From contig OZ024753.1 of NCBI GenBank assembly GCA_964016885.1, forward strand, positions 42,222,001 through 42,286,000: a DNA stretch of 64,000 nucleotides, read 5' to 3'. The DNA is from Eledone cirrhosa (lineage: Eukaryota). Below, piece by piece: positions 19,803-62,567 of the stretch. A model generated the notes under the pieces. That model was not told the DNA's origin. It searched no databases and saw only the letters and a program-made list of their open reading frames with translations. The position numbers were made by a program, and so were the translations under genes. Numbering within the stretch: the stretch's first letter is position 1; each line of letters starts with the position of its first letter.

Positions 19803-19935
19803 TACTTTGTGTTTACCGAGCTGTGTAAAATAGTGACAGAAAGTAGGTCAACCTTGGTCACATGCTGTATATATATTCATGTAAAAGTTGGATTCTGGAA
19901 ATTATTATTTTTTTTGGTGGGGTGGGGGTTGGTTG

Positions 19936-20256
19936 GGTTGAATAATGAAAACAAAGATGAGGTGCAGTGTTTAGGTTTAATTAGTTCATTGTTTAACGAT
20001 CCTTTCAATATGTTGATTGAACCATGACAATATCAATATATTGACTAATTCCATATGAGTTGTGTAACTCCCTCCATTCTTCAGAAATATGACCCCTAAT
20101 ATGGAGGTAGGGGGGGGGGGGGGCTTTACATAATTGCTATCATTTAGTCACAATATTGATATTGTCAGGGTTCACTCAACATTTTGAAACAATCGTTAAA
20201 ACAATGAACTAATTAAGCCATGAAATGTTGCCATCTTTGTTTTCATTATTCCAGCC
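19936..20256. mobile_element. Foldback-type element with about 115-bp imperfect inverted repeats
   Basis: gaataatgaaaacaaagatg...tgacaatatcaatat vs atattgatattgtca...catctttgttttcattattc. Confidence 0.7.
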
Positions 20257-20263
20257 ATATATA

Positions 20264-20362
20264 CGGGGTGTCCCCCAAAAATGTATACACACTTCAACAA
20301 CATTCTAATAAATATTACCTGCATAGGTAATCAAAGTGTGTATACATTTTTTGGACACCCTG
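20264..20362. mobile_element. Tiny Tc1/mariner-type MITE, same family as 6431-6507
   Basis: cggggtgtcccccaaaaatgtatacacac / gtgtgtatacattttttggacaccctg. Confidence 0.75.
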
Positions 20363-20422
20363 AATATATTACTCTTTTACATGTTCCAGCTGACTGGCTG
20401 AGGCCAGGCTGGGGCACCGCAT

Positions 20423-36085: not shown

Positions 36086-38766
36086 GAGTAGAAGAAAGAA
36101 TATTGGCCAAGATTCAGTGAATTTGTTTTGAACTATTGCTCTTCAGCTCATTCTGGATGTTTGTTACATCCATGTGGTTGATTCAACAGTGCACATTCTT
36201 CGTACAACCAAGTACCTCTTCTCAATAACTCCAGTGACATTATTAACAAGGACAGTTTCTCATTTATCTTTGTTTGTTATTCATCACATCATTATGAAAA
36301 TATCTGCTTCCTCATAACAGTCAGAATGCCAAAAATCTTCAGTGATATTGTTAATTACTATCAGAAGTAACAAAGCAATACCTCACCTAACTCAAATGGT
36401 GTGTATTATATTGTTAAACAGTACTTTATTTAACTGCTAGCTCTAAATCTCCTTCAGCTGTCAACATTAGTGGAATATATCCTATAATAACAGCAACAAT
36501 AACTATTTTTTTCTGCCACTAAAGCAGGAGATAGGCCACATAATAGGGTCTAGGGTCCTTTCTGAGCTGAGGCAATGTTTTACAGCTAGGGAGTATACCT
36601 GGTGGCAATCCATTTAATATATCCTATATACAGATATGGTGTTGAAGTGGCAGAGATGTTAAAACACTGGATATGATACATTATTTGTATTTGTTCTGTT
36701 TCTCTGTATTCTAAGTTCTAAATCTCACCGAGGTCAACTTTACCTTTCAGCCTTTTGAGGGTGATGAATAAATTACCAGCTCAATTCTGGAGTCGATACT
36801 TCTGTCTATTTCCTCTGGAAGAGATCAGCTTAGTTCTGATCTAGAGAGGGGATGGGCTCTGCCAAGTTTAAAAGGGCCAAGATATCGCCATGGTGTCCCT
36901 ACAACTTTGTGAACAAGAAGAGATATTTCAAACATGGGAAAATACACTGAAAATGGTCAGTTTTAGTTGAAATATTTAATCTTCTTGGTGTCACAGACAG
37001 GTAAATCCTGGAAGTTGATAATCACCACACCTGTAAAGATTGGACAGATACAAAGTAAAGTTAGTTATTGTTACAATATTACTGGTAATGGATTGGTAGA
37101 AACAGTAGTACACCAAACTAAAATACCTTCTGGTATTTACTTCCACCTCTCGACAGTCTGACAAGGTCAACTTTGCCTTTCGTCCATCTGGGGGTTCAAT
37201 AAAATAAAGTACCAGTGAGATAGTGGGGTTGATATAAATCGACTCCCCCTTCCCCTCTGACCCAGGTTTCTGGTTTTGTACTTAAATCAGGGATCATTCA
37301 CTTGGTATTTGTTCTGGCTCTTTACATTCTGAGTTCAGACCCATGTGGGGTTGATAAAACAGAGTACCAGTGGAATACTGGGGATTAAAATAATCGACCA
37401 TCACCCCACCACCCGTCTCCGAAAAAAATTGATGGCCTTGTGCCTAAGTCTGAAACCATTAATGTTGTTATTATTACTGAGAGATTTTGGGGTGATGGAT
37501 ATCGGTAGAGCGACGGGCAACGTGCTTTACAGCATAGTTACGGCCCTTTACGTTCTGAGTTCAAATCCCGTCTAGGTTAGCTTTGCCTTTCATCCTTATG
37601 GGGGGGGGGGTTGATAAAATAAAGTACCAGTAATACACTGGGGTCAATTTAATCGAATTCTCCCCCCCCCCTTCAAATTGCTGGCCTTGTGCCTAAAGTA
37701 GAAACAATTATTTTCTTTGTGGTTGATTGGCAGAATTGTTAGTGACATCATATGTCACTTCATATTCCGGGTTCAAATCCTACCAACCCTTTCATCTATC
37801 AGTGAATGGGGTGTGGGTGGTGGAGATAGCAATGTGTAGCAGTAATGTACTGAGGTCTCTAGAATTGACTGTTCTCTCGTTCTTCTGTCTCTAGCTAATC
37901 AATAACATTATCATTGTTATATGAAATACAACCCTTTCATCTATCAGTGAGTGGGGTGTGGGGGGTGGGTGGAGATAAACTAAGGTACCGGTAATGTACT
38001 GGGGGGGGTCACTGTAACATTATCATTGTTATGTGAAATGCAAATGTTCTCATCCATCCATGTCAATATTTTTATTTTATATTCCCTTCAACTATTTTAT
38101 GAATGCTTACTTTGTATATATATATATATATGTATATGTATACATGTATATATTTATATATATATGTATGCATGTATGTATATATGTATGTATACATCTA
38201 TATATATAGGTATGTATGTGTGTATATATATATGTATGGGTGTGTGTATATATGTATATATGTGTGAGTATGTATGTATGTCTGTATATATGTATATGTA
38301 TGTATGTATATATGTGTGTGTGAGTGTATATATGTATATATATATATATGTGTGTGAGTGTATATATGTATATATGTGTGTCTGTGATGAAACAAAATAT
38401 TGTTGATTTTTATGTTTTCTATTATGTATCCATTTGTGGGTGAAAGATTATGGTCATACAGTTTTTTGGGTGAAAGATTATGGTCATACAGTTTTTTGGG
38501 TGAAAGATTATGTTTATACACAGTTTTATGGGTGAAAGATGTTTCTACACATACCTTGCTTGAACTTCTGATTTTCGTCTGATATAAAGTGAGTCTCTAT
38601 TCTTTTCTTTTCCGCTAAAATCATGAAAAGAATTATAAAAAAATCATGAGAAGTTATGGCCTCGCCACACAACATAAATTCAACGTTCTCTAATGTTAAT
38701 GTCATTTAGACTTGTTCTTTCTTTAATCCTTGTTATATTGTAATATGATAGGACTGGGCCCTCTAA

Positions 38767-39252
38767 ACATCCAAGAAACCTCGTATGATATACAACCTTA
38801 TAGGAGGTCTGCTAAACCTATGTAGGTGTGAGATGTAACAACAACATCCAAGGAACCTCGTATGATATACAACCTTATAGGAGGTCTGCTAAACCTATGT
38901 AGGTGTGAGATGTAACAACAACATCCAAGGAACCTCGTATGATATACAACCTTATAGGAGGTCTGCTAAACCTATGTAGGTGTGAGATGTAACAACAACA
39001 TCCAAGGAACCTCGTATGATATACAACCTTATAGGAGGTCTGCTAAACCTATGTAGGTGTGAGATGTAACAACAACATCCAAGGAACCTCGTATGATATA
39101 CAACCTTATAGGAGGTCTGCTAAACCTATGTAGGTGTGAGATGTAACAACAACATGATAGGACTGGAGCCTCCATCATTAAAACATCCAAGGAACCTCGT
39201 ATGATATACAACCTTATAGGAGGTCAGCTAAACTTATGTAGGTGTGAGCTGT
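38767..39252. repeat. 77-bp tandem repeat, about 6 near-identical copies; monomer relatives near 12220-12300, 12570-12665 and 52070-52355
   Basis: catccaaggaacctcgtatgatatacaaccttataggagg... at 38845, 38922, 38999 and 39076. Confidence 0.93.
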
Positions 39253-44447: not shown

Positions 44448-46331
44448 TTTTCCTGGACCTTTCCGACGGAATTACTTCATATATATATATATATAGTCTT
44501 ATGCTGAATCTCCCTGAGAATTACGCTTAGGATTCACATGCCTAGAATTCTCAGCCACTTACTAATTACTCCCCTCCCGGTTATGTTTATAACATTTTTA
44601 TATATTTTAAACTGAAACTTAATGTTTAAAATATGCTGAGAGAAATTTCTTCTAAAATACGATACTACGATAGTGAAACCTTTTCAGCAGTTTACGGCAG
44701 CTGTTGGGTCTCTGGTTACATTTGAAGTCTTAAAAATCGATGAATCTGAATATTCAGAGTTTGATAATATCTGACGTAAACATGAATTTTTATTAAACCA
44801 AGGTGGTCGTGTGGTTAAGAAACTCGGTTTTGTAATCAACATATTTTCAGGTTCAATACCACTGCCTGGTTAGCATGGGGCAAAATATCTTCTACTATAA
44901 TCTCGGGTTGACCATTGCCTTGTGAGTGGAATTGGGTAAACTACAGGGATTATTAAATAACTATCGTTGGTGTATCATATAAATAATATCAAAATAAATA
45001 ATGAGATGTTGTCTAAGTTAGGGATCAAGTTTAAATATTTCGAGAAATATTTTAATAAATAAATAAATGGTTCTCTTCAAATATATTGAGAACGAAATAT
45101 TGGGTTATATTTCCAACCAATTTTAGCAAACAAACAAACGTGGTAAGGCCATTTTCCCAGCTTTAGCAGAGAAAATGTCCTTGTGGGTCCCAAACAAAAT
45201 TCTTCATTTGACCCTATCGTCTGCAATCGCTGACTTTCATCATCGATTTTAATCCACAATGAATTTCCATCAGATTGCATTAAACGTTAAATATTAAGAA
45301 ATGCTGATCACGGTGTCTGGTAATGCCATGAAAGTCTTAGCTTGCTTCATACATTATTAGAGGACACATTTCTCAATTTTTCCTTATCGTCTGCATCCAA
45401 CTTCTACAACATCCGACTTTAATTTCTTCCTCGATCATCAATTTAATATATTTTATGATATTAAAACTAAGATTTGATTGCTTTAAACGCAATAATCATT
45501 AAATAAATATTTATAATTAAATAAATAACTGTTCACCGAAAACACCAGGTGTAGATAGCAGCTAGGAATGGTTGGTGTTGTGGCTGCCGGTATCAAGAAA
45601 CTAAATAACTGACTGACTACCGGACATCAATAATGGCTTTGGCCGGCAGCAATAGCCAGTGTGTGTTACATTGTATAACATTCATTGGCTTGATAATGGA
45701 TATTTTCAGTGAAAAATTTCGTATTGAATAAACAGCAGAGTTGGCTGATGTGTGGCTGCTGGTATGAAGAAGCTGAATAAATGTCTACCGGACACCATAA
45801 TGGCTTTGTCCGGTGGCAGTAGCCAGTGTACATTGGTCAATGTTGGTAGTGAAGGGGACGACAAAGACGACCTGCGGCTAATGTAATTTAATATCAGGCT
45901 ATCAATAATTATTATTATATTACAATCGACAACAAACACTGATTAAAACTAAGATCAAACGTAATAATATATTTTTTTATAATTAAAATAACAACAATAA
46001 TAGAATTATAACTAATTTAAAATATGTAATTTCTAAAACTAAGTGCGCTGTGTCCGGAGCCGGAGGTGTAGTGAGAAATAATTTGGCTTTTGTCCGGCAT
46101 TTTGACACAGAAAGATACTTCAACATTATTTGCTCGCAGTTAACAAATATTTCATCAAGGAAGCAGAATTCTTCAGGTAGAATAAATATCAAATATCTTA
46201 TTAGAATTATCATTTATAATATTAGTTTCCTAGATGTAAATATTTACTTAAATCACATTATTTATCAGTGAAAAGACAGACAGAGAGAACCAACTGTATT
46301 ATTGTCTCTGGCATAATATATACAGTATATA

Positions 46332-46541: not shown

Positions 46542-48188
46542 TCAGTTTCGGTTCACCTGGTTTAATTAACTCTTGGTTATATTAATTAATTATTTAACGT
46601 ATTTTTATTATATTATTTTATAAATTTCTTCTACCATTCTTCCCCTGGAATAGATTTTCAGACGAAAAATAAACTATATTCTTTATTCTAATATTTTTGG
46701 TAATTTAAACCACATATTTCTCAACCCATTTGTCATTTTATGAGGTGAGGGACAACTATAACAAGGTGCTTTATGAATTAACTGTCATCTTAATTAATTA
46801 ATTAATTAATGTCACCCTCATAAAAACAACTCCAGGTGGATCAATAATTAATTGTATATTTCTGTTTAATATTCATTCTGTTAGAATCATAAACAATGTT
46901 GTAATGTTATTAAAAGTATTTAATTATAAATTGTCTTAATTAACTCTTTTATGGTCGTAATTCTTATAAAATTAACACTTTATTTCTAATTAACGACTAT
47001 AACTTTATAGATAAGATTAAATAGAAATAAATATAATGAATTAATTATTGCTAGGAACCTTATAAATATAATATACAGTTTAATATATAATCAAAGCGAG
47101 AGAAAATATAAAAGTAATTATAATTCAATGTCTTAATTAACTCTTTGTAGTCCTATTTCTAATGAAATACTCTCTATTTCTAATTAGCAGTAATTAATTA
47201 ATTATATGTATATACTTATATATTTATATGATAAAAAAACAAGTAAATGGACGATAACACTTGAAAAACATTTTTTTTAATAAACACTTGAAAACAATTA
47301 ATTAACTAAAACTTCAGGTGTGGACAGGTGGGGTAAAGAATTAATTATTATTTAATTACTAAGATAATGGTAATTAAACATGTTGGACGATTAATTTTTT
47401 AAAATAAATACTAAAAACTTAATTAAGACATCGTTAGGGGTGGGGATTAATAAAATTAATTAAGACTTCGTTAGGGGGTGGGGTTAATAAAATTAATTAT
47501 GTTTTAATTACTAAGATAATTACTTAACATATTGTTCTTATATAAAATTATGTTGGAAGATTTTAATTATTTCTTATAATTAAATTTTTATTGAAACCTT
47601 TTGAAAGGGGATGGGTTCGTTAAATATAAACCAGAGATAAGTGATTTCTGTTATGGTTTGGTGTTAAAAGGGTTAATTATTAAATAATGTAGCACTCAAT
47701 ACTGTTTTTTTTTTGGTGTTTCTACTCCTGACAAAAGGTAAACAATAGGAACGTGGAACAACAATAATAATAATGATTGTTTCTACTTTAGGCACAAGGT
47801 CAGCCATTTAGGGGAGGGGAAAGTCAATTAAATCGATTCCAGTGCGTTACTGGTACTTTATTTTATCGTTAGAATAAAAGACAAAGTTGATCTCTATCAA
47901 ATAATTATTATTATTTCTTTATTGGCCACAAGGGCCGATTTAAGTAATACTAATTAATAAAGTACTTATATGGCGCCATAAACTTCGGAAAACGAAAGAT
48001 ACGTTGACAGGTGCCCCACTTGTCGTTCATTTTAATCAAATCTTCAGATTTTTTTAAATGAAAACCTACTCAAATTATACGGCAGTTGGTGTATTTTTAT
48101 TTTTATCCCTCTTTGTTATATATATATATATATATATATATATGTAAAATAATTAAGTCAAATGTTTAAAATTTAGCTTCGTTTATTC

Positions 48189-48241
48189 CTGCTATATATA
48201 TTTCAGTGACAGCCATCTTTGGCTGTGACCTCTTCAGGCAG
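48189..48241 (-). ncRNA. Second hammerhead copy, exact reverse complement of 48453-48505
   Basis: lies in the left arm of the 407-bp palindrome. Confidence 0.7.
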
Positions 48242-48452
48242 TCCGAATTAGTGTGGTATAGACAAGGTGTATAATTTTGTCAATACTCTGATATGCCCAG
48301 TTCCTGGTTGGGTTGTTATTTCACTGAGGAACTGGAATCATATGAAATTCATATGATTCCAGTTCCTCAGTGAAATAACAATCCAACCAGGAACTGGGCA
48401 TATCAGAGTATTGACAAAATTATACACCTTGTCTATACCACACTAATTCGGA

Positions 48453-48505
48453 CTGCCTGAAGAGGTCACAGCCAAAGATGGCTGTCACTGAAATATATAT
48501 AGCAG
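48453..48505 (+). ncRNA. Minimal type I hammerhead ribozyme motif (Penelope-like element type)
   Basis: CTGC-CTGAAGA-GGTCACAGCCA-AAGA-TGGCTGTCACT-GAAA-TATATATA-GCAG; stem I CTGC/GCAG; 11-position stem II with one C.C mismatch; 2-bp stem III with palindromic ATAT loop; predicted AUA cleavage after 48501. Confidence 0.72.
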
Positions 48506-49251
48506 GAATAAACAAAGCTAAATTTTAAACATTTGACTTAATTATTTTACTTTATTTTACATTACTCTGGAGAAACCAAACTAACCTGCGCACTTCGTCG
48601 AGTGCTCCAACCAACATATACTCAAAATCTCTCTCTCTCTCTATCACATTAAACATGGGACTGTTAATAATGTGTTAACGGAGCGGGAATCTAAAATATA
48701 ATTATTTCTTCCCTGTTAATATTTGAAATGTTAACGTAATTTCATCAATATTTTGTTGTTGATTCTATAAGTAATTCCCACAGGAAGAATTTTGTCATAG
48801 CTATTATGACAATTTCTTACTAAATAAGAGATAAATAAATGTTTTGTTCGGATACCTAACGGCCCCTTGTTCTACGATACTAAAAAAAAAGCTATCAAAA
48901 TTTTATATAAGAACTTTTGTTATGTACCATCTTAATATTGGTTCTGGTTTAGGCTCAAGGGCAGCAATTTTGGGAAAGGGGAAAGTCGATTAAATCGATA
49001 CCAGTATGTTACTGCTACTTTATTTTATCGACAGCAATGCTTGCATGGTCTTTTGTGTGGTGTACAGTAGCTGAGATGTACCATCCAGTCAAGGCTGTAG
49101 ATTAGCACTACCACTTTACAGCGTGGACTGGGTGCTTTTTATCATTGCACTAGCACTACCACCTTACTGGGTGGACTGGGTGCTTTCACAACACACTCAC
49201 TGTTTCAATAGAATTTTCCAGTATAATTTCTTGTTATTTCAGTGTGATCTG

Positions 49252-49550
49252 ATGCCTCAACATCGAGGACAATGTGGCCATCTGTTTGCAAGCTGGGACA
49301 ACCATAAACTGTGTGCATCTTGTCGGACTTGCAGTGAAGACAATGTCTGTAACATCTGTCAACATTGGAATGGTGACTTGTGGAAGAGACACAATAATCG
49401 AAGAATCTATAAAACAAAACGTAATAAATCTTTGAGTAAAACTCTACTAGCTTCCCAGTCACCTTATGACTGGACAGCTAACAAACCATTTGCTAAATTT
49501 CCATCAAATACTCAATGTGGGATGATACCTCAGGCTGGTGAGGTTATGAA
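49252..49550 (+). CDS. Gene 2 first certain coding exon: Cys/His-rich finger MPQHRGQCGHLFASWDNHKLCASCRTCSEDNVCNICQHW, resembling the N-terminal finger of DIRS-type Gag
   Basis: acceptor atttcag ends at 49242, ATG 49252, donor AA|gtaagt after 49550; pattern C-x-H-x7-H-x2-C-x2-C-x2-C-x5-C-x2-C. Confidence 0.75.
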
Positions 49551-49624
49551 GTAAGTATCTAGAGTAATATTCACTTTTAGGGTTTAACTTGAACCCTTTT
49601 GTAACTATATTTCTATATGCTTCA

Positions 49625-49880
49625 GCAAATAGACAATATGCCCACACCCCTCCCACTGCAAAGTGGTTGTGGAGGCACCACGGCAAAAAAGCTCCCAGCA
49701 CTCACTGTAAATGAGGTTGGTGTTAGGAAGGGCATCCAGCTGTAGAAATCAAGCTAGAATCAGGTCCTGTATGAGCAAGACGAGGTGCCGACTGGACACT
49801 GCCCACAACAGGGCAACCCGTCTAACCTATGTTAGCGTGGAAGAACGGACGTAAAAGGGCAATGATGATGATCATGATGA
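49625..49880 (+). mobile_element. SINE / LINE-tail repeat ending in (GAT)n; inverted copy at 56722-56965; others near 25345-25563 and 17880-18045
   Basis: gttaggaagggcatccagctgtagaaa...cccgtctaacc...agcgtggaagaacggacg...gatgatgat. Confidence 0.75.
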
Positions 49881-50241
49881 TTTCTAATGAAAGACAACCT
49901 GCTGAAGGGAATAATATTTACTTTTAGTGTTTAACTTGAAAAACCTTTTGTAACTATATTTTGATCACGAAGCAGATTGTACTGGGTCACATGGTACCAG
50001 TAGCAGGCATAAACCTGACCTGACCAGACCAGGGTCTGGTGGGGCAGCCTGTTTAGTTGCTGACCACTCTACTATAAAATAGGTTGTACTGTATTACATG
50101 GTACCATTAGCAGACAGAAGCCTGGTCTGACCAAGAGGCATGTTATAAATACAAATATTAATTCAACTCTTGCTAAAGGGGAAAACAGACGTATGATGAT
50201 GATGATTGTTGGTTGTGTTTTTTTTTGTTTCTTTTTTTCAG

Positions 50242-50323
50242 TTTCCCAATAAGTTATTCCAACACCAATTCCCACCCTGCAGAACCAATGAATGCCATCA
50301 ACATGCCAAGATCTCATATTATG
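50242..50323 (+). CDS. Gene 2 middle exon (NFPISYSNTNSHPAEPMNAINMPRSHIM)
   Basis: strong T-rich acceptor ttttttcag|, donor ATG|gtaaat; 82 bp, phase 2 to 0, bridges both neighbouring exons in frame. Confidence 0.72.
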
Positions 50324-50858
50324 GTAAATATTTCTTTCTACTTCATTCTATTAATATATTTTCTACTAAACAGTTAACCCTTTTGATAGCAAACCACCTG
50401 AAACTACTCCTGATTCTACAACACAAAACAGTAATATTCCATCATTAGAACATTTGTTAAATTATGTTCCAAACACCAGCTTCATCCTTTAGATTCCAAA
50501 GTGTCTGGAACCACCCCTGGTTCTATGATACAAAACTGTATATTTTGAAGTATTTATATTTATCTAAAATCTTTTTATAAAATTGTGATAGAAGGTTTTT
50601 AGATAAATATAAACACTTTAACTCTTTCATTACATTATTTTTATGAAAGACACTGCCTATAGTTTTCAAATAATTTTGAAAACAATTATGAATTTGCAGG
50701 GATTTCTCATTACTAAGATGGTGTTTGGAACATAACTTAACAAAGGTTCTTATATGAAACTTATGACGGAAGGTTTTTAGTTTAAAACCTCTGTGCTTCC
50801 TGAGATTCGCCAACACTATACCTGATATGCCCCCTCCATACACATGCACACATGTATA

Positions 50859-50973
50859 TCATGACTCGTACACTATTCACTTCCCTGACATTTGTACATT
50901 ATTCTATGTACTATACATACACTTTTGATGAGTTGTAGTGCACCTGAGCACTGTACACAATTTCATTATTATT
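50859..50973 (+). mobile_element. Retroposon 3'-tail fragment with (ATT)n end; copies at 25607-25720, 53010-53120 (-), 63460-63575 (-), 63590-63672 (-)
   Basis: recurrent tcatgactc...tgatgagttgtagtgcacctgagcactgtacac...attattatt. Confidence 0.7.
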
Positions 50974-51206
50974 ATAAATATAAACAGTTTAAAATAAACT
51001 ATTTTGTTTGATAGAACCTTGGTTGGATTTAGTTTGTTTGGTATCAAAAGGATTAAGTTAAAAATTGTACAGTTTGAGAATGTAAAGAAGATGATTAATT
51101 ATTTTTAAATCATTAAAAATAGAAAATCTAAATTCTTTTTTTTTTATTGTAAAGTTTAAACATTAACTTTCAGGAATCTCTAATTGATGTATCTTTTGTC
51201 TTCTAG

Positions 51207-51788
51207 CCTTCATTAAAACTGCTGGAGACATCATTTGATCCAAATAAACAAGCCAATTCTAGTTTTATGTCTCCTGTGTGGGTTAAACAGGAGCATTGTG
51301 AAGAGACAACCAAGTTACCAGAAACACTTACACCAAATCCTTATACAGCAGATGACCATTCCATTGCTGAGGCACCACTCACTGCATGTCTTGCAGCATC
51401 AACAGTTAGCACCAACCAAATACCTTCTCCATCATCTACTGGACTCACCACAAATCAGTACTCATCAATGTATTCGGGGTGTGAGTTGTCACAAAAAGAT
51501 TTTCCCAGTCATTCTACGAATCTGTCTTGTCTTGGAAGTGGAGGAAATAACATTAAAATCCAGAATAATTACTCAGTGCCACTAGATTTGCAGCCAACAA
51601 TGGTGGAAGATGACAGATATGTGAGAATCAGTCAGAAATGTTTGAAGACATTGATGTCTTTAGTGTCATGTCCAATGTGCCAAGCTCCGGTCAACCATCA
51701 AGAGACAATTCAAGGTTTTAAGGCTGGGACACTGTTTTGTTTGAATCTTTTCTGTTACAACGGTCACAATATACAACCACGTTGGTGA
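51207..51788 (+). CDS. Gene 2 last exon: low-complexity linker with VKQE SUMO consensus, then C-terminal CxxC-x24-C-x3-H zinc ribbon
   Basis: ttctag|CCT in frame with ORF 51267-51788; TGA ends at 51788; AATAAA at 52509-52514. Confidence 0.78.
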   Translation, partial: PSLKLLETSFDPNKQANSSFMSPVWVKQEHCEETTKLPETLTPNPYTADDHSIAEAPLTACLAASTVSTNQIPSPSSTGLTTNQYSSMYSGCELSQKDFPSHSTNLSCLGSGGNNIKIQNNYSVPLDLQPTMVEDDRYVRISQKCLKTLMSLVSCPMCQAPVNHQETIQGFKAGTLFCLNLFCYNGHNIQPRW

Positions 51789-53339: not shown

Positions 53340-55440
53340 AACAATAATATCCAACTGTTATTACATCTTTTAGTTTTTAAATAGATTTCTGTTTCATCTG
53401 CAGTTTTCATCCTTCTACTAGAATTCATAGTAAAACCTGTAATATATTGTTGATATGGCACCAGAGCTTCTGTTTCACACATTGGAATGTTATATTTTAA
53501 TGTCATTTACATATAACATGGCCTAGTGGTTAGATTGTTGGACTCACTGTGAGTTTGTTGTTCGATTCCTTGACCAGTCAGTATGTTGTGCACTTGAGTG
53601 AAATACTATATTTCATGTTGTGACCAACAGATAGTATCAACAATGGAAAACCTAATGGAAACGTTGTTTCCTTGGTCCAATCTAACAATCAGCTTCTTTC
53701 CTTTTGTTTTTTTTTTTACATATGAATTTAGTAATGAATAGAATTTCCAGTTTTTAAACGAATTAGAATTCAAGGGATATTAATCTTCTGTAAGGTGGTA
53801 GTGCTGGTGCCAGGGAAAATGCTGCCTGTTCACTCTGTAAGGTGGTTGTGCTGGTGTCATGGGAAATGCTCGCAGGACATGCTGTAAGGTGGTTGTGCTG
53901 GTGTCATGAAAAATGCTCCCAGTACATGCTGTAAGGTGGTTGTGTTGGTGTCATGAAAAATGCTCCCAGTACATGCTGTAAGGTGGTTGTGCTGGTGTCA
54001 TGAGAAATGCTCGCAGTACATGCTGTAAGGTGGTTATCATTAGGAAGGGCATCCAATTGTAGAAAGCAAGCCAAAATGAAATGTATAAGCAAGATAAAGT
54101 CATCTGATCTGTCTGCTGCTCTCAGAACATGACAACAACCCAATTAATCTATGCCAGCATGGATTAAATAGGTGTTAAATGATGATGATGGTGATGATAA
54201 GACAGAATTCTTTATTCCACTGTGACTTCCTATTTATTAATGTTTGTCCTATTTACAGTGTGTGGCATTTAGTATTTGATTTTAAGTATAATAGCCACCA
54301 GAGTCAGAAAGATGTGGGAGAAACATTAACTCTTTAACATTTACATTACTCCATATATACTATTGTATTTTCGTGGTAAAGGCTTTACCTCACATAATAA
54401 TGAATCTATGAGATTTTGATATTATTTATTTTGAGAACATTACCTTAACATCAGTATGAGTGGCTGATTACAGCTGTTTTTGAACAGAAAGAGGTGAGAG
54501 AATTCTGGCCAGATATGTCCGGTTCAAAGGCTAAAGGGTTAACATAATTATGAGCAGCTGGTTATAGCCAGTTTGAACAGAAAGGGGTGAGAGAATTCTG
54601 GCTGGATATGTCCGGTTTAAAGGGACTGCTACATCTTTTGATAATAAAGGGGGCTTTCTTTCCACATGACAAGCAGACTGTATAAAGAAGTAGATGCCAT
54701 AAAGTCTGGTGTTAAATGGCAGTGAAACATTGACATGGATTTTCCAAAGTGAAATGCCATACTTTGCATTTGTTTTAGCTGTTGTTTTTCTTGTAATTTC
54801 TAAAGCTTTTAACTATTTTCTGCAGCATCTTCTACACACTAGCTTGAGACGACTCTTCAGTTGTGTCGAGAGCATGATGCCCCCCCCCCCCCCCCCCACT
54901 ATTGCTGATGTCACAATAAAACACATCAAGTACACTGTCAAATGTAGGAATGTTTATAAGTGAGATGTGGCTCTTTAGCCCATCTGTGAGGAAAGTGGTT
55001 CCAGTTTAAGTGCTGACTTGGTCTGTGATGACCCATCCAACCTCTCACAGTGTAGAAAAGCAGACATTAAATAATTTTCTCTGTTTAAACTCTCACAGTT
55101 CATAGCTTTTCTATTTGAACTCTCATATTTCATATGTTCTCTGAACTCAAATCTGTATCTTCTTGTTTGGACTCTCATATTCCATATATTCCTTCTGCCA
55201 GTAACAGAGCATTTAATGGTATGTCTTCATGTAATTCACACTCATATTTGGAGAATATCTTCTGTTGCCTGCTTTATTATTCAAGTTTTCAAATTGCTTT
55301 CTTAGTTTGCTTCAGTAGATCATACTTAAAATTATCTCTAACAATTGCAGGTATGCTGTCATTCATCATTCTTTCTTATACATACAAATACTTCCACACA
55401 GAACTGGACTGGGTCTTAAAACTGTCTTGGGCATCTGGGT
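53340..55440 (-). pseudogene. Possible decayed coding sequence broken by repeats
   Basis: protein-like frames with scattered stops at about 55440-55130 and 54870-54625, and an open 50-codon stretch at about 53490-53337 (IPMCETEALVPYQQYITGFTMNSSRRMK...). Confidence 0.25.
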
Positions 55441-55759
55441 GACAAACTAACAGACTGATGACTGGTGAGGGGTCAGAGGTGTCTTTTCACTGCCCAGCAG
55501 AGGTGACACTGAATAACAGAATGTTGACCTCTGAGGACCAGAAGTTTGTTTTCACTGCTCACCTAAGGTGACACTAATTAACAGATTACTGAGGGCCCAA
55601 AGCTAATCTATGCATGCTGTGGTTGTGAAAGTAGGGGACCCAGTGCATTGTTTTGTATGAGGTGTGGGCCATTGGGTCTAGGGATCCAATGCTAATTTAT
55701 GCATGCTGTGTTTATATGTGTAGGGGCTCCAGTGCAATGTGTGCTATGGTATTTCGTAC

Positions 55760-56070
55760 CCTAAGTTAGCTCTACAATGTGTACCTATGCATTGAGCACC
55801 CTAGGCTTGGTCTACAATGTGTACCTGGGTATTTAGCACCCCTAGGCTTACTCTACAATGTATGGCTGGGTATTTAGCTCCCTAGGCTTGCTCTAGAATG
55901 TGTACCTGGGTATTGAGCACCCCTAGGCTTGCTCTACAATGTGTACCTGGGTATTGAGCACCCCTAGGCTTGCTCTACAATGTGTGGCTGGGTATTTAGC
56001 ACCCCTAGGCTTGCTCTAAAATGTGTACCTGGGTATTTAGCACCCTTAGGCTTGCTCTAAAATGTGTACC
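55760..56070. repeat. 40-41-bp tandem repeat, about 7 copies
   Basis: cccctaggcttgctctacaatgtgtacctgggtattgagca. Confidence 0.9.
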
Positions 56071-61165: not shown

Positions 61166-62521
61166 AAAATAGCACTGGGTCAATATGATCAATTAAATCA
61201 AGGCAGTGCTCCAGCATGGCTACAGTCTAATGTGAGACAACTAGTAAAATAGTACTGGGTTAATATGATCAATTCAATCAAAGCATTGCTCCAGCACGGC
61301 CACAGTCTAATGTGTGACAACTAGTAAAATAGTACTGGGTTAATATGATCAATTATATCAAAGCATTGTTCCAGCATGCCCACAGTCTAATGTATGACAA
61401 CTAGTAAAATAGTACTGGGTTAATATGATCAATTATATCAAAGCATTGTTCCAGCATGCCCACAGTCTAATGTATGACAACTAGTAAAATAGTACTGGGT
61501 TAATATGATCAATTATATCAAAGCATTGTTCCAGCATGCCCACAGTCTAATGTATGACAACTAGTAAAATAGTACTGGGTTAATATGATCAATTATATCA
61601 AAGCATTGTTCCAGCATGCCCACAGTCTAATGTATGACAACTAGTAAAATAGTACTGGGTTAATATGATCAATTATATCAAAGCATTGTTCCAGCATGCC
61701 CACAGTCTAATGTATGACAACTAGTAAAATAGTACTGGGTTAATATGATCAATTATATCAAAGCATTGTTCCAGCATGCCCACAGTCTAATGTATGACAA
61801 CTAGTAAAATAGTACTGGGTTAATATGATCAATTATATCAAAGCATTGTTCCAGCATGCCCACAGTCTAATGTATGACAACTAGTAAAATAGTACTGGGT
61901 TAATATGATCAATTATATCAAAGCATTGTTCCAGCATGCCCACAGTCTAATGTATGACAACTAGTAAAATAGTACTGGGTTAATATGATCAATTATATCA
62001 AAGCATTGTTCCAGCATGCCCACAGTCTAATGTATGACAACTAGTAAAATAGTACTGGGTTAATATGATCAATTATATCAAAGCATTGTTCCAGCATGCC
62101 CACAGTCTAATGTATGACAACTAGTAAAATAGTACTGGGTTAATATGATCAATTCAATCAAAGCATTGCTCCAGCATGCCCACAGTCTAATGTATGACAA
62201 CTAGTAAAATAGTACTGGGTTAATATGATCAATTATATCAAAGCATTGTTCCAGCATGCCCACAGTCTAATGTATGACAACTAGTAAAATAGTACTGGGT
62301 TAATATGATCAATTATATCAAAGCATTGTTCCAGCACGGCCACAGTCTAATGTATGACAACTAGTAAAATAGTACTGGGTTAATATGATCAATTATATCA
62401 AAGCATTGTTCCAGCACGGTCACAGTCTAATGTATGACAACTAGTAAAATAGTACTGGGTTAATATGATCAATTCAATCAAAGCATTGCTCCAGCACGGC
62501 CACAGTCTAATGTGTGACAAC
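61166..62521. repeat. 80-bp tandem array, about 17 copies, identical in the core
   Basis: ctagtaaaatagtactgggttaatatgatc... every 80 bp. Confidence 0.97.
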
Positions 62522-62567
62522 TTATGAGAGTGAGAGCAAGAAGATATTATAAGATGGTGTTACTGAC

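Follow-up and report, generated by a model that had tools for sequence, protein, structure and literature searches.

How does a near-perfect palindrome come to carry a hammerhead ribozyme motif on each of its strands, and would either ribozyme act where it now lies? The question is raised by positions 48144-48550 of a stretch of 64,000 nucleotides of Eledone cirrhosa DNA (contig OZ024753.1 of assembly GCA_964016885.1, positions 42,222,001 to 42,286,000), which is referred to below as the window and numbered from its first letter. We consider that the palindrome is best explained by a Penelope-like element (PLE) of Hydra type that was inserted head to head, and truncated at its 5' side, into a (TA)n microsatellite, probably by priming at two sites, and whose ribozymes probably stay silent, and we would put the probability of this overall account at about 0.72. 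Published work is cited by accession.

A truncated Penelope-like element

The palindrome is centred on A48347, a 1-nt spacer between arms of 203 bp that mismatch at two places only (48312/48382 and 48180/48514), and pairing is lost at offset 204. A preliminary description of the window, made from the sequence alone, had given these dimensions exactly, and both of the hammerheads that it placed there, one on each strand, were found again by a descriptor scan, which detected no other in the window. No other long near-perfect inverted repeat of non-simple sequence exists within the window. The element does not end with the palindrome at 48550; it runs on to the right as far as 48628, where (CT)7 and then unique DNA follow, while the left arm lies directly on (TA)n (48117-48143). 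The 93-nt tail of the family is carried by the right arm and is absent from the left one.

When the arm was used in a similarity search, 685 candidate places were obtained, 40 of which were scored, giving 54 matches with 87-91% identity. By walking upstream from two copies the parent element was reached, and the arm turned out to be the 3' end of a 4.1-4.2 kb element with reverse transcriptase (RT) and GIY-YIG endonuclease (EN) regions. Three loci (L032, L105 and L106) contain units in which an open reading frame (ORF), with RT motifs DIASYY and YRDD and, at its C terminus, GIY-YIG, stands between two pseudo-long terminal repeats (pLTRs). The full layout of inverted arm, direct pLTR with tail, ORF region and pLTR is seen in L105 and L106, and in L105 same-strand tandem hammerheads lie 4,097 nt apart. 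The palindrome had been interpreted as a PLE remnant with an inverted pLTR, and this is supported by the arm sequence that flanks RT and GIY-YIG regions at these three loci; a genome-wide comparison of the arm had been suggested at that time as a check. Partial tandems, an inverted 5'-truncated copy and a tail at one end, which are traits of PLEs with an endonuclease (EN+), are all present.

Concerning the clade, Hydra elements are described as having a C-terminal GIY-YIG, RWK and DKT motifs, a CxCX5C linker, CxxC before the E and CxH after the N of the endonuclease, and no CCHH (PMC8557442). In L105 and L032 the RT motifs are RMRWKA and HADKTNNLY; the linker is CNCRNPESC, CCHH is absent, and the C-terminal endonuclease shows LVY..YIG without an internal cysteine pair, CKLCLNE before the E and N..CRH, all invariant in 10 aligned sequences. 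Insertion into (TA)n, another habit of the clade, is also observed, since both kinds of 3' end adjoin (TA)n at nearly all loci printed. The family unit is longer than the <3 kb common in the clade, which is a tendency and not a rule (PMC8557442). From these data the palindrome is almost certainly a truncated insertion of a Hydra-type PLE, as far as sequence motifs allow such an assignment.

The named protein homologues come from Octopus and Argonauta. Profile searches added little: homologue P0009 gave a sub-threshold Pfam GIY-YIG match (E=0.0019), no relevant Pfam model was matched by the RT or EN fragments of the family, and weak matches to Dam, T-antigen, glypican and methyltransferase, obtained with family fragments and with the neighbouring gene, were dismissed as meaningless. 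CNCRNP, HADKTNN, KVPPDKGG, GTCRH and a 17-nt ribozyme stretch had no match in the accessible part of the PMC8557442 supplement, and the family may be named already; two 9-nt stem motifs had 3 and 5 matches there, of which 1 and 3 were listed, all in unrelated coding sequence. Two other classes of repeat were discarded. A miniature inverted-repeat transposable element does not fit the asymmetric ends and the apices that vary among inserts, and a non-LTR retrozyme does not fit one hammerhead per strand, head to head, in a sequence that is the end of an ORF-bearing element.

Two 3' ends, one of each in an insert

We typed 61 loci picked by the ribozyme core pattern and 27 picked by similarity, after dropping duplicate views and the segmental duplicate L084. 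The 3' ends fall at two sites 93 nt apart, named L (position -1) and S (-94, with scatter to -101), and in the window copy the left end is of type S and the right one of type L. One L with one S was found in 33 of the 34 two-ended head-to-head inserts picked by pattern and in 16 of the 18 picked by similarity (49/52 together), a result far from coin-flip pairing (p=2e-9 for the pattern-picked set, p=5e-12 for the pooled one). The single exception among the former, L095 (LL), ends in S when read further (L106), and the two among the latter are one S+S insert and one composite. The remaining loci are single arms (19 pattern-picked and 9 similarity-picked) or, in 8 pattern-picked cases, untyped.

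A stretch of C1 was sampled completely: its 76 matches correspond to 57 inserts after removal of L084, 30 of them L+S, and a hand count gave 17 tight palindromes with a paired arm of at least 100 bp. Extrapolation from this one stretch suggests about 4,000 inserts and more than 1,000 tight palindromes in the genome. On C1, a distance of about 1 Mb separates L081 from L084 (L107/L108), two composite inserts that are almost identical and probably stem from a segmental duplication.

The two arms of an insert also agree in their subfamily. Diagnostic cells were discordant between arms in only 9 of 483 cases over 44 pairs, while 1,000 shuffles gave a mean of 36% and a minimum of 19%. The 5' breakpoints concentrate at -318 to -328, where the pLTR has the overlapping self-complementary words TGAATTCA and TCATATGA. 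Exact TCATATGA apices number 475, in two subfamily versions that agree on both sides in 48 of 50 among the matches listed, and 260 junctions join the same ATATG to (TA)n. The window apex lies in the AATT next to TCATATGA and has one additional A. An overlap of 1-11 nt at the apex was noted in 21 of 25 inspected inserts, although it is BLAST-derived and partly due to chance. A transcription start at -322 was considered as the reason for this hotspot and is unlikely, given that full tandem copies begin at -617 and -630; it may still apply to RNAs derived from stubs.

The two ends differ from their template in one further respect. At 15 of 48 genomic L ends there are at least two CT units (up to >20), while the tandem template has one. 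Extra TTTTA units are seen at several S ends. Such additional units may reflect stutter at the initiation of reverse transcription or later growth of a microsatellite. The literature searched, with Repbase, Dfam and subscription journals outside its scope, contained no statement of strict L+S pairing or of initiation stutter for PLEs.

Probable priming at two sites

The 3' ends of both arms face outward onto the target, from which, in the logic of target-primed reverse transcription, we infer that each was primed from one end of the cut. The GIY-YIG nuclease would cut both strands of (TA)n, one 3'-OH would prime at L while S would serve the other, with either a single RNA or several RNAs of one source copy as template, and both cDNAs would stop early. 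As cDNAs of identical sequence, they would anneal mainly at a palindrome, here GAATTC/TCATATGA, and repair would fill the rest; the template would be uncut or re-ligated RNA. Such twin priming probably produced the insert. It is favoured by the in vitro behaviour of a Poseidon PLE, which cuts both strands and extends them, initiates at two sites of the RNA that bound the tail, is predicted to form a dimer and uses an uncut RNA template, ribozyme cleavage not being required (PMC11167929).

A stricter form of twin priming can be put forward only tentatively, as something we would not yet bet on. An enzyme dimer would prime both ends of a (TA)n cut on a single uncut RNA, invariably with L for one end and S for the other, and a telomerase-like stutter at initiation would lengthen one templated unit into (CT)n at the L site and into (TTTTA)n at the S site; the resulting palindromes, about a thousand near-perfect ones of 100-300 bp, might be a major source of octopus A-to-I hyper-editing.

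History of this copy and other origins of its arms

The window copy belongs to the older haplotype. Four derived changes are common to both arms (11.1 C>T, a change in stem I, -115 T>A and a 16-bp deletion), one of them of the CpG-decay type; two more are private to the right arm. A deletion of 25 nt and three substitutions are found in the unpaired tail. Assembly-wide, the exact pattern of the 16-bp deletion matches only these two arms, so that no source or sister copy was found, and that of the 25-nt deletion occurs once, in the window copy. Two other loci with the stem I change were considered as sister copies and belong to another subfamily.

One explanation of the common changes is that the arms were homogenised after insertion by template switching in a hairpin or cruciform, a process that would add to the insertion model without replacing it. 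The four common against two private changes of the window copy, with no sister copy, speak for it, as does L019, where 7 unique changes are common to the arms and 1 is private. In 43 two-armed inserts, however, shared-unique changes are few (18, versus 85 private-unique), and the loci that have them are no commoner among tight palindromes (7/26) than among spaced ones (5/17; p=1.0). General conversion between arms is therefore not supported, and homogenisation of the present arms seems to us possible but doubtful.

It has also been proposed that head-to-head PLE palindromes arise by self-priming on an antisense template (PMC3846280). In this case the second arm would result from the fold-back of one cDNA (or of an antisense RNA template) at a short palindrome, and the arms would be copies of each other, which directly explains an assembly-unique deletion present in both, the matching subfamily letters and the apices at palindromes. 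Yet single arms and copies longer than 4 kb also end 3' at S, which adjoins (TA)n as a priming site would. Moreover, at least 10 of the 33 pattern-picked L+S inserts have an S arm that exceeds the L arm at the 5' side by at least 8 nt, which a single fold-back of an L-primed cDNA cannot give, and in 4 of these inserts, as well as in L013 and L025, the arms have no sequence in common (in L049, L076, L098, L103, L013 and L025 the L arm is tail only). A stub primed at S, in turn, cannot gain the tail through fold-back. Since a deletion across the centre could mimic a longer S arm, fold-back is retained, as an unlikely origin.

Several points weigh against twin priming and the wider account built on it. 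The asymmetry of the arms could come from just such a post-insertion deletion across the palindrome centre. The four changes common to both arms, lacking a source or sister copy, fit a lost or idiosyncratic source, but fold-back or local arm-to-arm conversion explains them equally well. In vitro there is no difference in start site between the strands (PMC11167929), whereas the genomic rule is strictly asymmetric. The clade placement relies on motifs and not on a tree, and all full-length ORFs seen carry frameshifts or stops. Finally, substitutions in the ribozyme core (9/531, 1.7%) compared with flanks (167/6100, 2.7%; p=0.20) do not demonstrate selection on the core within the family, the copies being very alike and the alignment partly picked by the core.

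The hammerheads and their activity

On the plus strand, stem I is formed by CUGC (48453-48456) and GCAG (48502-48505) and is followed by the core CUGAAGA (48457-48463); stem II (48464-48489) has 11 positions, namely G·U, G-C, U-A, a C·C mismatch and 7 pairs, with a 4-nt loop. GAAA (48490-48493), a stem III of 2 bp with an AUAU loop and the triplet AUA complete the motif, with a predicted cut after 48501, and AATAAA begins one base past stem I. The elements of a type I hammerhead are thus present (CUGANGA, GAAA and NUH in the core, together with three helices), helix III being reduced to 2 bp with a self-complementary loop. Exact matches to the 36-nt core number 5,615 in the 3.0-Gb genome (2829+2786) and those to its reversed control 0, so the motif is not due to chance. 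An Rfam search, proposed earlier as a check, gave no hammerhead match at E<=10 with the region, the arm or the motif alone; published PLE hammerheads were located by descriptors and not by Rfam (PMC4209133). Rfam microRNA matches were all below the gathering score and reflect the hairpin shape, and a microRNA precursor was rejected.

Two details of the motif have to be read against the family. The 4-bp stem I described for this copy is correct, but it is a variant (4 of 112 parsed arms), the norm being 5 bp (101/112). Similarly, the window copy does have G·U in place of the G10.1-C11.1 pair that closes stem II; this characterises the family and does not reflect decay of the copy, as position 11.1 is T in 68 and C in 44 of the 112 parsed arms (138 aligned). 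The haplotype to which the youngest inserts belong has T there in each of its 55 arms, and U at 11.1 is therefore compatible with mobility. L050, L063, L067, L068, L071 and L073, with others, show no differences between arms and up to 12 common subfamily letters; this group is a young subfamily with U at 11.1.

Does either ribozyme act here? Very probably not: according to folding predictions, the hammerheads would be silent passengers at this locus. In a read-through RNA the arms are predicted to form a 203-bp duplex (-377 kcal/mol) that buries the ribozymes, the pairing probability being 0.000 for all hammerhead helices, in agreement with the masking suggested at first. It had also been thought that transcripts starting inside the palindrome could cleave themselves, which appears unlikely, since in an RNA started at the apex the predicted probability of stem I is 0.001, versus 0.12-0.14 in a young copy. 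A transcript of either strand at this locus makes the antisense arm first. Cleavage as a dimer, given in the preliminary description as usual for PLE hammerheads, does not apply to this pair, because the two ribozymes lie on opposite strands and cannot form a tandem dimer with each other, and the scan found no same-strand partner in the window. Minimal type I hammerheads of metazoan PLEs are inactive as monomers and weak as dimers in vitro (PMC4209133).

The insertion ends point the same way for the family as a whole. Inserts run across the cut site, and no 3' end at that site was found among the typed loci. As 5' junctions, 18 pattern matches were obtained there, and 11 of the 15 inspected are true junctions; the -320 site has 260, although TA microhomology would favour junctions at the cut site. 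The lack of 3' ends and the scarcity of 5' junctions suggest that the template is mostly uncut or re-ligated RNA, and the rarity of cut-site junctions rules out ribozyme cleavage as the main maker of 5' ends. AATAAA was likewise rejected as the template's 3' end, since copies continue 50-150 nt past it and into the ORF.

The locus and its surroundings

Positions of the features are collected in Table 1. The symmetry of the palindrome stops at the S end of the element, and the flanks are unrelated to each other; more precisely, the left arm stops about 10 nt short of the modal S end, within the first of two T-rich repeat units.

Table 1. Features of the insert and of the adjoining gene (positions in the window)
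Feature	Position	Strand	Basis
(TA)n target microsatellite, adjoining the 3' end of the left arm	48117..48143	.	Sequence; S ends of the family sit on (TA)n
Left arm, inverted 5'-truncated pLTR end, S type without tail	48144..48346	-	Locus L001: -327..-106
Minimal type I hammerhead, mirror copy	48189..48241	-	Core start 48237; predicted cut 48193/48192; positions by mirror symmetry
Apex, where the arms join at the self-complementary GAATTC/TCATATGA of the pLTR; A48347 is additional	48341..48353	.	Inspection and folding
Right arm, 5'-truncated pLTR end, with 16-bp deletion (junction near 48429)	48348..48550	+	Arm alignment, exact-pattern search
Minimal type I hammerhead	48453..48505	+	Descriptor scan, core matches, folding
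Remaining T-rich unit and family tail to the L 3' end, with 25-nt deletion (junction near 48609)	48551..48628	+	Family alignment
(CT)7 at the L junction, for which a single CT stands in the tandem template	48629..48642	+	L-end comparison
Host gene next to the insert, first coding exon with ATG at 49252	49243..49551	+	Polypyrimidine-AG acceptor just before 49243

The preliminary description had placed the palindrome about 700 bp upstream of the first coding exon of a gene. The distance is 702 bp to the ATG of what is indeed a conserved, single-copy gene of at least three coding exons (the others at about 50240-50332 and 51207-51785); a homologue of 346 aa (P0031) matches at 64% over the first exon and has the same starting Met, and no Pfam family was found for the gene in a Pfam scan. 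The gene (49243-51785) is Cys-rich at both ends. The acceptor-like AG before the ATG implies an upstream non-coding exon and agrees with the intronic position suggested for the insert. Judging from the sequence, the palindrome likely lies inside an intron of the 5' untranslated region (5'-UTR). By eye, two CpG-bearing stretches are seen upstream of the insert (45500-46180 and 47960-48090). The first of them has the look of a promoter or of a first exon; a donor may lie near 46177, which would leave the palindrome in a 5'-UTR intron.

Such a position invites the idea that the palindrome was co-opted as a regulatory switch of the gene, through cleavage, editing or small RNAs in the 5'-UTR intron. 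Its place upstream of a conserved single-copy gene and the exceptional number of near-perfect double-stranded RNA loci and amount of hyper-editing in octopus (PMC5625713) are in line with this, but the insert has thousands of counterparts and has decayed in the usual way, by two deletions, CpG changes and the shortening of stem I, with ribozymes predicted to be masked or misfolded and no same-strand partner in the window, and we consider co-option very improbable. That the palindrome is a fold-back artefact of sequencing or assembly, as its near-perfect symmetry and the private deletion in both arms might suggest, is hardly credible, given a symmetry that stops at the S end between unrelated flanks, two differences between the arms, an L+S structure with the tail on one side only and hundreds of equivalent inserts with varied apices.

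The locus itself is ordinary, one decayed stub among thousands. It is the family that is informative, as it supplies numbers on the way in which a PLE comes to be inserted head to head with its tail on one side: start sites fixed at two positions, an almost strict rule of one of each, a common source for both arms, a self-complementary join that predominates and hardly any ends at the ribozyme cut, all of them within reach of the in vitro assay that exists for PLEs. The palindromes of the family are also candidate double-stranded RNA substrates for cephalopod hyper-editing. If the region is transcribed, editing of the 203-bp hairpin by ADAR would be plausible by analogy with Penelope in lizard, which is heavily edited (PMC5625713).

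Other repeats were noted in passing. Tandem arrays of the window lie at 61166-62522 (period 80, 17 copies, 97%), 38766-39155 (period 77, 5 copies, 99%), 55748-56070 and 53788-54035 (periods 41 and 47), and the descriptor scan found no hammerhead motif in these four arrays. Older, degenerate fold-backs with arm identity of 73-80% occur at 19934-20369 and 50545-50621. Related fragments stand on either side of the insert (47780-47900 and 48945-49030) and resemble what we take to be a common octopus short interspersed element. Elsewhere, a second broken PLE ORF of another type (L031:4260-6228, with a PCxxxRCxxC linker and YIGQTG), presumably Neptune-like, lies a few kb from a family copy. Retrozyme-like tandem hammerhead repeats of about 310 bp and 468 bp are found beside family copies (L027:1-1309, where the motif was read by eye, L041:1921-2859 and L079:267-735), and other hammerhead families occur in L007, L017, L063, L117 and L120.

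Comparison with known systems

With the Hydra-clade PLEs of PMC8557442 the family has in common the protein motifs given above, a canonical hammerhead and the (TA)n target, as well as partial tandems, the inverted 5'-truncated copy and the tail at one end only. One octopus member, Hydra-1_Obim of Octopus bimaculoides, is included in the supplement of that study (Craig et al. 2021); compared by eye, its hammerhead and protein sequences are other than those found here, and it is a different family. The unit of 4.1-4.2 kb contrasts with the 'generally <3 kb' of the clade, the pLTRs are clear here while Hydra-1_Obim is listed with none, and the tail has 93 nt instead of the 30-40 bp described for PLEs (PMC8557442).

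The hammerheads share with those of metazoan PLEs a long helix II, a helix I of 4-5 bp and a short palindromic helix III (PMC4209133). In the same source, opposite-strand hammerhead pairs are 100-700 bp apart, and the cores are here 220 nt apart; such pairs, like the one-sided tail, are an already published pattern. Differences from the motifs presented there are G10.1·U11.1, in the window copy and in most arms, in place of a conserved G-C, and a helix II interrupted by the C·C mismatch.

Poseidon PAc of Anolis (Frangieh et al. 2024, PMC11167929) resembles the family in its two RT start sites bounding the tail, its AT-rich target, the cutting and extension of both strands and the uncut RNA template. 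It belongs to a different clade, its start sites are inside the start of the ORF and not upstream of the ATG as here, and in vitro it shows no strand asymmetry, in contrast with the strict L+S rule of this genome. Lastly, the non-LTR retrozymes of animals (PMC7229834; bioRxiv 10.64898/2026.07.22.740005) are also short hammerhead-bearing repeats linked to PLE pLTRs; these, however, are head-to-tail tandem monomers without an ORF, whereas the insert described here is a head-to-head stub of an ORF-bearing element.

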